Shown here: in pieces, positions 8,616 through 36,066 of the stretch | How the letters are laid out: the number at the start of each line of letters is the position of its first letter | Position numbering within the stretch: position 1 is the first letter of the stretch | DNA from: an uncultured Acidobacterium sp. | GTDB taxonomy: Bacteria; Acidobacteriota; Vicinamibacteria; Vicinamibacterales; UBA2999 | Direction: 5' to 3' | Assembly (NCBI GenBank): GCA_964513235.1 | Contig: CAZEMI010000124.1 | Coordinates: forward strand, 1,596-65,595 | Length of the DNA stretch: 64,000 nucleotides | Position numbers and translations under genes: made by a program | Notes under the pieces: model-generated | The model's input: the letters and a program-made list of their open reading frames with translations, nothing else | Told to the model about the DNA's origin: nothing | Databases searched by the model: none

Positions 8616-9236
8616 ATGACCAGGGTGCTGATCATTTCACCCGTCCGCCTGTACCGCGAAGGGCTGGCCCATCTCATCGCGAACCATGCGGGCCTCAACG
8701 TCGTCGGCGCGCATTGCGCGCTGCCGGTCAAGCAGGTCGAGCTCGACACACTTGACCCCGACGTGATCGTCCTCGACATCGCCACGCCGGGGAGCATCGA
8801 TGCGGCGCGCGGTCTTCGACTCCTCGATCACCCCCCGGCGCTGGTGACCCTCGGCGTGACCGACACCGACCACGAAGTACTCGCGTGCGCCGAGGTGGGC
8901 GCCGTCGGCTACGTGACTCGGGAAGGTTCCCTCGACGAGCTGGTCGCGGCGGTGTGCGCGGCGGCGAGAGGCGAGCTGATCTGCTCGCCGCGCATTGCCG
9001 GCTGCCTGGCGCGCCGCGTCGCCACGCTGAGCGCCGGTCGGGAATCCGATCGGGAGCGGTGGCGGCTGTCACGACGAGAGCGCGAGATCGCGCTGCTGCT
9101 CGGCCAGGATCTCTCCAACAAGGAGATCGCGGTGCGGCTGACCATCGAGGTGTCCACGGTCAAGAATCACGTGCACAACATCCTGAACAAGCTGCAGGTC
9201 AATCGTCGTTCCGACGCCGCGCGACTGGTTCGTTGA
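8616..9236 (+). CDS. LuxR/NarL-type transcriptional regulator with atypical receiver domain
   Basis: The C-terminus LSRREREIALLLGQDLSNKEIAVRLTIEVSTVKNHVHNILNKLQV is a LuxR HTH. The N-terminal receiver fold keeps VIVLDI but lacks the acidic pair after beta-1 (ISPV). GGAGG lies 6 nt upstream of the ATG. Confidence 0.85.
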   Translation: MTRVLIISPVRLYREGLAHLIANHAGLNVVGAHCALPVKQVELDTLDPDVIVLDIATPGSIDAARGLRLLDHPPALVTLGVTDTDHEVLACAEVGAVGYVTREGSLDELVAAVCAAARGELICSPRIAGCLARRVATLSAGRESDRERWRLSRREREIALLLGQDLSNKEIAVRLTIEVSTVKNHVHNILNKLQVNRRSDAARLVR

Positions 9237-9250
9237 GCCACTGCGATCGC

Positions 9251-9282
9251 GGATCTATGACCGGATCTAGTTCCAGGATCTA
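9251..9282 (+). promoter_or_regulatory. three direct GGATCTA repeats spaced 12-13 bp (candidate operator)
   Basis: GGATCTA occurs at 9251, 9263 and 9276, with a related CGATCTA at 9312. The site lies between the LuxR gene and the pseudo-receiver/eCIS operon. Confidence 0.3.
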
Positions 9283-9453
9283 GGTCCGCTCAGCTGTGCG
9301 TGGCGCGCGGGGCCTCGATCCCGATCTACATCCACCCGCGACGGTTTCCTAAGTCCTTTTCAGATACCCAAGTCCATTCACAACCGCGCGGCGCCGCCCC
9401 ATGATGGGCCGGTCCATTGTGATGCCTGCATCACGCGCGATCAGGAGGCGGTA

Positions 9454-34900: not shown

Positions 34901-35377
34901 CGTGACGCCAAGCGCTTCGGCGTGTTCGGTGCCGACGGCAGGATGTCACGGCCGCTCGTGAGCTGGTGGGCGAGCGGCAAGACGCTATTCACCGAGAACC
35001 AGGTGACGCTCGACCTGATCGACGAGCCGCTCGGCTTCGGGTTGACGTCGGTCGTGATCTTCTCGCTCGACGATTGCCGAATGACCGACAATCAAGTGGA
35101 GCTGTCGACCAGCGCGACATTTTTCGCGCTCGATGCGATGCTGTTCGGCGGCAGCGTGCACGAAGCCGACAACCGCCTGTCGGAAGCGGTGATGCACGTG
35201 TGGCTCTCGTCGCTGTCGATCGGGGTCATGAACACCACCACCGACAACCAGGCGACGCACTGCCTGCTGGCGCTGGCGGCGATCCCGAGCCTGCGGATGT
35301 TCAAGCACAACCTGGCGCTGATCAACGGCTTCTGCCCAGGTATCTGCGGCGGCACCGGCTACGGCGAAGACAACTGA
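31928..35377 (+). CDS. tail fibre/tailspike-like protein with right-handed parallel beta-helix repeats (Afp13 role)
   Basis: GTG start. The N-terminus YSGVRMQQGRVLTDDDFNE is a motif I associate with DUF6519-type eCIS/tail proteins, though my recall is uncertain. The C-terminal two thirds carry many PbH1-like repeats (VRVLDNTIRGGIWNGITLG, LRIADNLITRC, LRILRNEIVHNG, LQIDDNRILGNG, MRDNVIEAPLG). Confidence 0.8.
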   Translation: MSTIDVSRWATDHRKRYSGVRMQQGRVLTDDDFNEAERLDAEDMRVTRVHVVGESGSPDAGFQVQAPGVNAAGSLTFQIAAGTLYLGGLRLEAGAAEAFELQKDWLPFTQAANGIPALAPGATRTDMVWIEAWPQNVSAVEDSELFEKALGGPDTAQRLRTMRRVRVSPGVAGADCAAAWTALVAAWAAAGEGTLGPDLEMQTNAVLTVTPVPSPSPNLCSPPMAGGYLGAENQAIRVQINGANTFSWGFDNASPLYRVLIKTDPDPASATSGLRVVIELQTEPKDTVHWPRTDQLIELLPWSAALPNREKVGELAGLYGRVTKSYDPVTKQIHIAPEAGAQVPAGFEDVWMARPAADVATFYDGSAAGKYAFMRVWNRGDEAAPVARIPIAALGNTLGNTGLRVQFAGAPLRNNDFWIIAARPETPDLVVPWLLKNQSPPIGLKRYRAPLALIKWTATGAGVVTGTVIHDCRHPFLPLTKVRGCCTVSVGDGSHSFGQFTSIQAAIAALPPEGGEICVREGIYDDSVVIDQRVGIRIHGCGPRTRIRAAAAAAQPAFLITRSSAIAIEDMAIESGPASAVHISNSRDVTVTGCLVQMRDLATFWPAIFSRGDDILLQGNIVEVLPANGIPPAPTVPPALPDANAPAGVNTPPPAVVMASATRGGIQLAGGSDRVRVLDNTIRGGIWNGITLGSLQLEGSDGAVDIPDDPTLRDPCFPCRPGDHTEPENPPPGRRYVSAGDLYDIVIGCNRISDMGMCGISVVRFFDVLNGGDLIGVYGLRIADNLITRCMRRDVAQPRDAMQWLAAYGGITLAIAADLRILRNEIVHNGRNHLDPICGVYAILVMGLQIDDNRILGNGARNAEPVAQAKNGIRGGVHVWFALPSIGQAKGALDDVGFKRGTRLFGSVQACAMRDNVIEAPLGRAVTFLALGHVVVARNRLVTMGYTGRGLDLLAATVFIGNFGISNEWTEDLIRMFGEDLVGGGIRQDPCRDAKRFGVFGADGRMSRPLVSWWASGKTLFTENQVTLDLIDEPLGFGLTSVVIFSLDDCRMTDNQVELSTSATFFALDAMLFGGSVHEADNRLSEAVMHVWLSSLSIGVMNTTTDNQATHCLLALAAIPSLRMFKHNLALINGFCPGICGGTGYGEDN

Positions 35378-35391
35378 AGGAGGCGTGAGGT

Positions 35392-36066
35392 ATGGCCAAG
35401 ACGCGCGGCACGGTGTTCTCCAGCTTCCTCGGCGATCGGGACCCCGACGATATCCGCCGGCAGTTCATCGAGGAGCCGCTCGCCGCGGCGCGGCAACCGG
35501 CGATCGACACGGCGCTGCGAGCGCTGCAGTTTCTCGCCGCGGTGCCGGACGCGGTGGTGGCATCGCGGCGGCGTGAGCTCGAGCGGGTGAAGGCGTCGGG
35601 CCGCGAGGACGATCCGCGACTCGCGGCGCTCGAAGCTTCAATCGAATACGCCGGCCGCGCCCGCACGGCCGCGCACCTGGCGCGCACACGGGTGGAGCGC
35701 ATCGCCGGCGCCATGATGGGAGAAGCGGTGCTCTTCCATGGTTTCGTCTCCTCCGAATCGCTGTCGCCGCTGCCCGACATGACGGTGAAGCTCGTGCGCC
35801 CCGGGGACGATACCGAGACCCGGGTCCTGACAGCGACGACGGACAAGGACGGATATTTCAGCGTGCCGCGTCCCGGCAAAGACGACGATCTCTGGCGGAC
35901 GCGCAAAGCCGATGACGGTGGCAGCGTCCAGCTGACGGACGCCGACAACGACCGCACCCTCAGCGTCGAGATCGCGGATGCGAAAGGCAACATCGTCTAC
36001 CGTGACCCGGTCGCGCTGCAGATCAGTCGCCCGGCCTATCGCGAGTACACGATCGGCGAGCCGTGA
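35392..36066 (+). CDS. hypothetical protein with carboxypeptidase-regulatory-like segment; last gene of the eCIS operon
   Basis: AGGAGG RBS. A coiled, Ala/Arg-rich N-terminal half is followed by FHGFVSS...VKLVRPGDD...TATTDKDGYFSV, which is CarboxypepD_reg-like. Confidence 0.6.
   Translation: MAKTRGTVFSSFLGDRDPDDIRRQFIEEPLAAARQPAIDTALRALQFLAAVPDAVVASRRRELERVKASGREDDPRLAALEASIEYAGRARTAAHLARTRVERIAGAMMGEAVLFHGFVSSESLSPLPDMTVKLVRPGDDTETRVLTATTDKDGYFSVPRPGKDDDLWRTRKADDGGSVQLTDADNDRTLSVEIADAKGNIVYRDPVALQISRPAYREYTIGEP

Follow-up and report, generated by a model that had tools for sequence, protein, structure and literature searches.

Which machine does a long run of phage-tail-like genes in a probably acidobacterial chromosome encode, and are its parts arranged in a new way? 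We addressed these questions in a 64.0-kb stretch of contig CAZEMI010000124.1 (assembly GCA_964513235.1; hereafter, the window), which represents nearly all of the 66.3-kb (66,293-bp) contig. A previous sequence-only reading had described the run as a complete locus for an extracellular contractile injection system (eCIS) of the Afp/PVC type and had proposed that its architecture may not be described. Here, we searched the window genes against the family libraries Pfam, NCBIfam, and PHROGs, and against solved structures by sequence and profile searches of the PDB and by Foldseek with AlphaFold2 (AF2) models. We also compared them with 79 related loci from a scan of one genome per species, in which gene order was determined by tblastn with the window proteins. 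The genes very probably form a single operon-like chromosomal cluster that encodes a contractile injection system (CIS) derived from phage tails, a member of lineage II of the Afp/PVC superfamily; its gene content is that of subtype IIa (or IIc), and its fibre is of the DUF6519 ("eBAP5") type. As predicted from its gene content, the locus holds every part of a contractile particle, together with an ATPase and a DUF4157-tagged cargo gene. The architecture itself is already known from other genomes.

Organization and components of the locus

The cluster consists of 19 co-directional genes on the + strand, from 9838 to 36066 (Table 1). An open reading frame (ORF) list, a codon-position G+C filter (frame analysis of G+C at third codon positions, GC3), and start-site inspection returned exactly the number of genes that had been counted previously. 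Two further genes on the same strand (8616-9236 and 9454-9807) lie 5' of this run, and the NCBI gene calls on the source contig were identical for six of the locus products in an exact-sequence comparison. Genes overlap by ATGA at 13547, 15713, 17638, 17880, and 27196. Of the seven junctions reported earlier as ATGA-type, these five were correct, whereas 24716 is a GTGA overlap and 29549 is an 8-nt overlap. All remaining gaps, from the 117-aa gene (9454-9807) through the last gene, are 30 nt or shorter. The proposal of a tightly coupled operon was therefore borne out in its overlaps and short gaps, but its gene list lacked the 117-aa gene, which is probably the first gene of the operon. The G+C content of the window is uniform, at 63-71% in bins of 2 kb, and does not change abruptly at the cluster. 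Scans of the window for Rfam families and for tRNA genes were both empty.

Profile hidden Markov model (HMM) searches recovered the sheath, the tube, the DUF4255 cap, the AAA+ ATPase, the DUF4157 protein, and baseplate parts, in agreement with the earlier call of a complete Afp/PVC-superfamily locus and with the sheath, DUF4255, and ATPase assignments at its core. Most of the other parts named in that call were also recovered by HMM, whereas the assignments of the PAAR-like, gpI-like, tube-initiator-like, and LysM/gpX-like proteins and of the length determinant proved to be weak or positional. Relaxed Pfam scans returned no match to the sheath insertion, to the cap extension, to either half of the 787-aa protein, to the second J protein in its N-terminal half, or to the Pro-rich protein; the latter also had no match in the standard Pfam, NCBIfam, and PHROG searches. 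No clear transmembrane (TM) segment was found in any of the 21 cluster products.

The 812-aa sheath contains an insertion of ~430 aa between its N- and C-terminal core domains, which is well conserved within the 800-aa class of sheaths. In the PDB sequence search, it matched 9ezm (1.6e-61) and 8bky (1.2e-58), with only aa 1-144 and ~571-807 aligned. Among the solved sheaths, Cis2 of Halogeometricum borinquense (9ezm) ranked first, followed by Cis2 of Streptomyces coelicolor (8bky and 8bl4, ~1e-58 to 5e-56), by those of Afp/PVC and related eCIS, and then by those of tCIS and AlgoCIS. The AF2 model of the sheath (predicted local distance difference test, pLDDT, 78) was confident across the insertion, and its top Foldseek match was again 9ezm_A, over the whole length (E 2.8e-24). 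More than 590 sheath homologues were found. Sheath length ranged from 494 to 1065 aa in 68 related loci, with common classes of ~520, 600-615, and 815 aa. The extended sheath, which had been counted among the possibly undescribed features, belongs to one of these three common classes, and we rejected it as a unique feature. We likewise rejected an apparent giant sheath in loci of the type found in Holophagales (L074), where two sheath paralogues are actually present: in L074 (10001-13326), these are 354 and 494 aa long, with a 182-aa ORF between them.

The protein encoded after the tube gene had been recognized correctly as a zinc-ribbon protein. Its four Cys residues are invariant across 40 orthologues, and the family searches sharpen the assignment to Pfam T4_baseplate (PF12322), which is matched by 39 of the 40 orthologues (best E 7e-19), with the window protein itself at 24.1 bits against a cut-off of 24.5. 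A match to the PHROG "baseplate hub" (1.5e-4) was also obtained. The gene lies directly 3' of the tube gene in 72 of the 79 related loci, and the T4_baseplate family is not named in the main text of the CIS literature that we searched; the protein is a near-universal yet unnamed component of the related CIS clade. We take the Pfam family to be built around T4 gp51, a catalyst of baseplate-hub assembly. Single-sequence and profile searches of the PDB found no relative of the zinc-ribbon protein among solved structures, which would fit a role in assembly, and the protein more probably assists assembly than forms part of the structure.

Between the zinc-ribbon and baseplate genes lie the Pro-rich, cap, ATPase, and cargo genes. 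Orthologues of the Pro-rich protein at the same position (257-391 aa) share conserved N- and C-terminal motifs that flank a variable, low-complexity, Pro/Ala-rich middle. This architecture fits a ruler, and we regard the protein as a putative tape measure or length determinant. The cap carries a C-terminal extension of ~230 aa that is conserved in its clade. A single-sequence PDB search with the cap returned nothing useful; only a profile of 21 orthologues succeeded, matching the DUF4255 chain 9qgn_A, Afp16, and Pvc16. The cap and ATPase genes are adjacent and overlapping. Between the ATPase and cargo genes, an 81-aa ORF could encode a chaperone, an adaptor, or an immunity protein. Counterparts of 81-122 aa occur at the same position in two related loci (L084, 5636-6004; L085, 5690-6004; 27-28% identity), and none is present in a third (L086).

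The baseplate module was recognized with varying clarity. For the 260-aa hub or tube-initiator candidate, the L084 orthologue also shows a faint CIS_tube match; a single-sequence PDB search returned nothing useful, and a profile search gave only 9rce_H (E 0.002). The 90-aa protein is hinted to be a baseplate component by Phage_tail_X matches in two of seven orthologues (E 0.016 and 0.064) and by a PHROG baseplate wedge match (E 0.005). The start codon of the gp5/gpV-like spike gene (ATG at 23421) is preceded by a GAGGAA motif, and orthologues of the PAAR-like protein share 54-67% identity in three loci (L080, L082, and L087, described below). The first J protein matched 9gtp_1K, a J-like baseplate protein of the Streptomyces CIS (4e-14). 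The 787-aa protein encoded next had no match in Pfam, NCBIfam, or PHROGs, and its profile found no solved relative; its family comprises 3261 representative clusters. Its positional orthologue in a Hormoscilla locus (L037) matches Tail_P2_I (4.5e-9), as do three of 41 sampled homologues, although weakly (best 5e-4). The fibre gene, whose product has more than 1000 homologues, occupies the same position in L080, L082, and L087. The last gene encodes a weakly conserved protein (~30% identity) that has the same position in L080 and L087, and it is followed by a convergent BON-domain gene.

Table 1. Coordinates of the features in the cluster and immediately upstream of it, numbered within the window
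Coordinates	Strand	Feature	Evidence
8616..9236	+	GerE/LuxR-type response regulator with atypical receiver	Pfam GerE E 1.5e-15; Response_reg 28.1 bits, just under cut-off
9251..9288	.	Three tandem 12-13-nt repeats headed GGATCTA	Between regulator and first operon gene, just past the regulator stop codon
9454..9807	+	117-aa receiver-like (pseudo-receiver) protein	30 nt 5' of sheath gene; coding GC3 0.87; same product in NCBI record
9838..12276	+	Contractile sheath (Cis2/Afp2-like), 812 aa	Phage_sheath_1 and Phage_sheath_1C, E 1e-8
12288..12794	+	Inner tube protein (Cis1/Afp1-like)	Phage_T4_gp19 E 2.9e-41
12816..13550	+	Zinc-ribbon protein, Pfam T4_baseplate (PF12322)	Invariant C87, C90, C167, C170
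13547..14428	+	Pro/Ala-rich protein, 293 aa	20% Pro; translationally coupled on both sides; position and architecture
14430..15716	+	DUF4255 tube/sheath terminator cap (Cis16/Afp16-like)	Pvc16_N E 4.8e-24, 85.5 bits
15713..17641	+	Dedicated AAA+ ATPase (Cis15/Afp15-like), 642 aa	AAA E 4.4e-23, 82.6 bits; N-terminal winged-helix WHD 2.2e-6; same NCBI product
17638..17883	+	81-aa ORF	ATGA overlaps with both ATPase and cargo genes
17880..21227	+	Cargo/effector candidate, 1115 aa	eCIS_core/DUF4157 E 4.4e-32, 110.5 bits, aa 83-159; HExxH
21258..22040	+	Baseplate-hub/tube-initiator-like protein (Cis7/Afp7 position), 260 aa	CIS_tube E 0.24 (window protein); same position in at least 17 loci
22053..22325	+	Conserved small baseplate protein, 90 aa; gpX/LysM-like unconfirmed	Orthologues with 45-60% identity in L080, L082, L010, L087
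22340..23410	+	gp27/VgrG-N-like spike base, first half of split Cis8/Afp8	NCBIfam VgrG_rel 2.5e-11, aa 46-343; Phage_GPD E 0.003
23421..23981	+	gp5/gpV OB-fold spike, second half of split Cis8/Afp8	Phage_base_V E 8.9e-25
23991..24332	+	PAAR-like spike tip (Cis10/Afp10 position)	DUF4280 E 3.5e-5, partial, 24.8 bits vs cut-off 26.3
24336..24719	+	gp25-like baseplate wedge (Cis9/Afp9)	GPW_gp25 E 4.2e-18
24716..27199	+	Baseplate J/gp6-like copy 1 (Cis11a)	TIGR02243 168 bits vs cut-off 155.8; Baseplate_J at cut-off
27196..29556	+	Baseplate J/gp6-like copy 2 (Cis11b)	TIGR02243 3e-41, 142 bits; PHROG baseplate wedge subunit 4.7e-16
29549..31912	+	Peripheral baseplate protein, 787 aa, Tail_P2_I-type adaptor position	Position; Tail_P2_I matches of relatives
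31928..35377	+	DUF6519 (eBAP5) anchor with right-handed beta-helix, fibre/tailspike-like	DUF6519 1.3e-8, 34.3 bits vs 22.4, aa 5-193; Beta_helix 26.1 vs 25.9
35392..36066	+	Last gene, 224 aa, possible fibre accessory	CarboxypepD_reg E 6.4e-5, under cut-off

Gene order in related loci

The proposal of an undescribed architecture had cited the cap, ATPase, and payload genes inserted between the tube and baseplate modules, the split spike, and the beta-helix fibre, in addition to the long sheath. We scored the order sheath, tube, zinc-ribbon, Pro-rich, cap, ATPase, and DUF4157, followed by the baseplate, and found that 74 of the 79 related loci were fully collinear with the window for every detected marker. 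The ATPase gene was 3' of the sheath gene in all 60 loci in which an ATPase was detected, and DUF4157 came after the ATPase in 46 of 50 loci. The hosts span at least eight phyla and include Acidobacteriota, Actinomycetota (Streptomyces, Kitasatospora, and Saccharothrix), Chloroflexota, Cyanobacteria, Bacteroidota, Pseudomonadota (Alpha-, Beta-, and Gammaproteobacteria), Myxococcota (Myxococcaceae), and Methanothrix.

The closest overall counterpart is located on plasmid pMTS1 of Cupriavidus sp. P-10 (L087; NZ_AP025172.1, 106.6-135.7 kb), which is collinear gene for gene from the sheath to the last gene at 31-78% identity; only the cargo slot of ~6.7 kb differs from the window. The pMTS1 record has no gene annotation in PLSDB and was compared by tblastn. 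The half of the cluster from the baseplate to the accessory gene also has gene-for-gene counterparts, encoding products of nearly the same size, in a Burkholderiales metagenome-assembled genome (L080) and in Andreprevotia lacus DSM 23236 (L082). In a Streptomyces locus (L086; Streptomyces sp. NPDC056470, 1-9186), a DUF6519 fibre gene, a 170-aa gene, and then cap, ATPase, and cargo genes were observed at the 3' end, the last belonging to the same cargo family. Because L086 carries the cap, ATPase, and cargo genes after the fibre gene, this block appears to move as a unit between positions, and both gene orders exist.

The individual traits have also been published. Subtypes IIa and IIc are characterized by two copies of afp11 and by separate gp27 and gp5 ORFs for the spike, and gene order is correlated with subtype (Chen et al. 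2019, PMC6899500). Acidobacterial eCIS have already been listed, GerE regulators adjoining eCIS loci have been reported, and DUF4157 has been defined as a core domain of eCIS that is fused to variable toxins or lies next to them, a pattern that the present locus matches (Geller et al. 2021, PMC8213781). DUF6519 corresponds to the "eBAP5" baseplate-anchor domain of 658 fibre genes, whose products frequently end in a pectin-lyase-type beta-helix and have Tail_P2_I adaptors as partners (PMC12923769, 2026). The claim of an undescribed architecture is thus not upheld.

Subtype and comparison with described systems

The gene content fits subtype IIa best (or else IIc), as judged from the two J genes (168 and 142 bits), the afp8 equivalent split into VgrG_rel and Phage_base_V ORFs, the separate PAAR-like afp10 ORF, and the divergent afp12/13-like genes after J. 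The only characterized member of subtype IIa is the CIS of H. borinquense, which its authors placed in clade IIa and for which they described DUF4157 proteins as associated cargo (PMC11566945). The window shares the DUF4157 cargo with this subtype, and the H. borinquense sheath is its best match by both sequence and fold. Conversely, the window sheath, with its larger insertion, compares with a sheath of only 574 aa in H. borinquense, and the uninterrupted operon of the window contrasts with two sub-clusters separated by an 8.7-kb spacer. A homologue of the six-TM anchor candidate Hbor_38620 was not seen in the window cluster, which encodes no TM product, and the window host is bacterial and diderm.

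The fibre relates the locus to the eBAP5 loci, with which it shares the N-terminal DUF6519 anchor, the beta-helix C-terminal part, and the position of the fibre gene directly 3' of a large baseplate protein gene with Tail_P2_I-bearing relatives. It departs from them in three respects. The published eBAP5 loci are correlated with Actinobacteriota (PMC12923769), whereas the window is probably from Acidobacteriota and its relatives are from Burkholderiales, Neisseriales, and others; eBAP3/5 loci are largely without Afp12 homologues (PMC12923769), whereas the window has a second J paralogue; and the window adaptor protein reaches no Tail_P2_I threshold.

The CIS of S. coelicolor (type IId; PDB 8bky, 8bl4, 9gtp, and 9gts) provides the second-best sheath match as well as the J match to 9gtp_1K. 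Both systems lack a recognizable Afp14-type tape measure and have a regulator gene at the cluster edge, and the T4_baseplate-family gene may correspond, by position only, to sco4251, whose product was detected in one purification. However, type IId has one afp11 and a contiguous afp8 (PMC6899500), no fibre, and the membrane adaptor CisA. The S. coelicolor genes form two divergent operons, with the ATPase in the other one, and the particle is cytoplasmic and mediates cell death. With a second J gene, a spike encoded in two ORFs, a DUF6519 fibre, and cluster products free of TM segments, the predicted gene content of the window does not fit the Streptomyces IId type.

With the lineage I systems Afp (Serratia entomophila) and PVC (Photorhabdus), the locus shares the sheath, tube, gp25, J, VgrG-like spike, PAAR, DUF4255 cap, and AAA+ ATPase, and its sheath C-terminal domain matches theirs at 1e-41 and 5e-40. 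In Afp/PVC, however, the tape measure, ATPase, cap, and payload genes are at the 3' end, whereas the window has them between the tube and baseplate modules, as is usual for its lineage II clade. Afp and PVC also differ in having three sheath paralogues, a spike that is contiguous, a single afp11, and adenovirus-like fibres.

Cargo candidate

The product of the gene at 17880-21227 is a candidate cargo or effector. The HExxH motif in its DUF4157 module is invariant, and only aa ~25-200 are common to the DUF4157 genes of other loci; the content of the cargo slot differs between otherwise collinear loci, with only the DUF4157 module kept. The remaining 916 aa belong to a small family of 44 clusters, whose members are ~1000-1190 aa long and nearly all fused to DUF4157, the single exception being an N-terminally short record of 847 aa. 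Hosts of this family include Verrucomicrobiota, Streptomyces, Kitasatospora, Myxococcaceae, and Longimicrobium. Three members were checked for genomic context, and all were encoded directly 3' of the ATPase in a CIS locus.

Across 42 family members, the near-invariant motif DHIVELQLGGTN...N...N was observed, corresponding to D355-H356, N366, N370, and N379 of the window protein. In the AF2 model (pLDDT 82), this motif lies in a beta-beta-alpha unit at aa 351-399. Pfam HNH matched the protein weakly (E 0.014) and matched only 2 of 43 family members; the best PDB profile match of the motif region was to the HNH catalytic core of Cas9, again weakly (E 0.067). Foldseek with the whole cargo model against the PDB and viral structures gave no domain-level match for this region. 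Taken together, the motif is suggestive of an HNH site.

The C-terminal part (aa ~545-1081) is modelled as an all-beta meander with three 28-residue strands. Foldseek against the PDB returned LptD, VDAC/Tom40, and porins with high probability but very low TM-scores, and we did not accept these matches as a fold assignment for that reason; against viral structures, nothing significant was found. Based on the model, this region may form a large antiparallel beta-sheet domain and is possibly membrane-active.

Alternative explanations and mode of action

All structural parts of the cluster derive from myovirus tails, and the predicted sheath fold also resembles myophage sheaths (E ~1e-13). The genes could accordingly be read as a defective prophage tail module, or as an R-type tailocin that depolarizes the membrane without delivering cargo, but we consider this very improbable. 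No gene for a capsid, portal, terminase, integrase, repressor, holin, endolysin, or other lysis function was found among the window genes scanned, which comprise all but a few flank ORFs (e.g., 45411-47054, 51245-51892, and 57954-59096). Neither a tRNA nor another attachment-site signal was present, and the G+C content is uniform. DUF4255, a dedicated AAA+ ATPase, and DUF4157 cargo mark eCIS, not tailocins, and the sheath matches from 50,697 phage records reach at most 36% coverage of the window sheath, at 24-39% identity. A canonical type VI secretion system (T6SS), which has the sheath, tube, VgrG-like spike, PAAR, and gp25/TssE-like parts in common with the locus, is even harder to credit: TssJ/L/M, TssA, a TssB/C-type sheath, and ClpV are lacking among the same genes, a single protein of the phage type forms the sheath, the cap belongs to DUF4255, and the tube is of the gp19 type, not Hcp. 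The sequence-only reading had likewise reported that phage head and T6SS membrane-complex genes were absent, and this holds for the genes scanned in the window, which covers 64.0 kb of the contig.

By analogy with described systems, the spike of the proposed CIS would nucleate assembly of the baseplate, in which the T4_baseplate-family zinc-ribbon protein probably assists. Polymerization of tube and sheath along the Pro-rich ruler would then continue until the DUF4255 cap closes them, and the ATPase may help to load the DUF4157-tagged effector. Contact of the beta-helix fibre would trigger contraction of the sheath, driving the spike, tube, and cargo into the target. Lineage II includes extracellular, cytoplasmic, thylakoid-anchored, and membrane-anchored members (PMC10066040, PMC11566945), and the place where the present machine would act has to be weighed separately from its identity. 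We lean slightly toward release into the medium, that is, toward a true eCIS, given that the cluster includes a fibre gene but no gene for a membrane anchor.

The same machine may instead stay in the producer, in the cytoplasm or docked to the inner membrane, where it would mediate stress-induced cell death or contact-dependent antagonism. We regard this as a possible but clearly less likely mode. It would agree with the top sheath matches, namely Cis2 of the membrane-anchored, T6SS-like system of H. borinquense (PMC11566945) and of the cytoplasmic system of S. coelicolor (PMC10066040), with the documented cell-associated members of lineage II, and with the absence of lysis genes in and next to the cluster among the genes scanned. 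However, neither a CisA- nor an Hbor_38620-like adaptor was found, the 21 products show no clear TM segment, the DUF6519 beta-helix fibre is present whereas the Streptomyces CIS is defined partly by the absence of fibres, and the gene content is unlike that of type IId with its single afp11 and contiguous afp8. A bolder version, which we consider rather unlikely, holds that the whole sub-clade is not a classical free eCIS and acts while associated with the producer, and that its cargo represents a new effector class combining a DUF4157 loading module, a His-Me-finger nuclease, and a beta-sheet module of ~540 aa, similar to membrane beta-barrels, that might insert into or cross the membrane of the target.

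Several points weigh against our preferred interpretation of a lineage II eCIS with IIa-type gene content. Its nearest solved relatives are not extracellular, as noted above, and it encodes no lysis or release function. No characterized CIS has an 800-aa sheath or a DUF6519 fibre, and the locus is known from sequence alone. The subtype placement is based on gene content and on the solved structure nearest to the locus rather than on a tree with dbeCIS references. The ruler, tube-initiator, gpX-like, gpI-like, and PAAR assignments are those described above as weak or positional. Finally, in most of the 120 best of more than 1000 homologues, the fibre is conserved across phyla along its whole length of 1,100-1,160 aa (44-86% identity, 97-100% coverage), and it is the cargo slot that varies; receptor-binding proteins usually show the reverse. 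This pattern points to a conserved target, perhaps a polysaccharide, or to a structural or enzymatic function.

Candidate regulatory elements

Expression of the cluster is probably controlled by the elements located immediately 5' of it, namely the GerE-type regulator, the pseudo-receiver, and the GGATCTA repeats. The regulator encoded at 8616-9236 is a candidate transcriptional regulator of the cluster. Receiver, receiver-GerE (REC-GerE), and kinase genes were also found near the cluster in L080 and L082. The heptamer GGATCTA occurs five times in the 64-kb window (~2 expected), and three of these copies lie within 32 nt. The repeats at 9251-9288, which correspond to our repeat families D3 and D4, are candidate binding sites of the regulator, and a promoter-like site (9377-9405) lies ~100 nt 3' of them. 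The 117-aa protein resembles the N-terminal half of the regulator's receiver (33% identity over 51 aa, pairwise E 8e-4), with Arg replacing the phospho-acceptor Asp. Directly 5' of the regulator gene, the ORF at 7268-8383 (+) encodes a protein of 371 aa that weakly matches the C-terminal repeat of squalene-hopene cyclase.

Flanking genes and host

The flanking genes that were scanned or looked up and had a match were all of the housekeeping type. Enzymes encoded there are PBP1a, a 6-phosphogluconolactonase fusion, an SDR protein, an AlkZ glycosylase, PanE, a GH127 glycosidase, and a xylulokinase. Transport is represented by ABC and MacB-type transporters and a sugar ABC system, and the remaining products are BON and Ysc84 proteins, an ArsR regulator, and a TonB-type outer-membrane protein. 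Four small flank ORFs (679-1107, 1679-2212, 2278-3162, and 7268-8383) had no family match or only a Gly-zipper match.

The acidobacterial origin assumed in the sequence-only reading is plausible. It is supported by an 816-aa duplicated permease of the ADOP family at 42956-45406 (+), which scored 749 bits against TIGR03434 (cut-off 622), and by a CarboxypepD_reg-type outer-membrane barrel at 48414-51182 (-). Conversely, the nearest relatives of the sheath and fibre are from Burkholderiales (72% and 57% identity, respectively), and the acidobacterial loci that we found carry other sheath classes. Because the closest CIS relatives are from Burkholderiales and not Acidobacteriota, the comparison suggests that the cluster was horizontally acquired. 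This aligns with the horizontal spread of eCIS described before (PMC6899500).

Implications

The locus adds one probably acidobacterial example to a widespread and catalogued family of injection machines, and nothing in it overturns the current understanding of that family. New points are the placement of the zinc-ribbon protein in Pfam T4_baseplate and the cargo, which belongs to a rare DUF4157 family with an HNH-like motif and a predicted large beta-sheet domain. The locus gains its interest from representing a sub-clade without an experimentally studied member, from the uncharacterized cargo family, and from the existence of cultured carriers. Possible experimental hosts are Cupriavidus sp. 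P-10, which carries the whole cluster, and A. lacus DSM 23236, which carries the half from the baseplate to the accessory gene; in addition, Paucibacter sp. APW11 and Andreprevotia sp. IGB-42 each encode homologues of the sheath and of the DUF6519 fibre together on a single contig. Cultured carriers allow tests of the mode of action, of the role of the zinc-ribbon protein, and of the cargo with its DUF4157, HNH-like, and beta-sheet parts. Because the modes known within lineage II are very different, from extracellular and cytoplasmic to membrane-anchored and thylakoid-anchored, each new sub-clade of this lineage merits a structural look.

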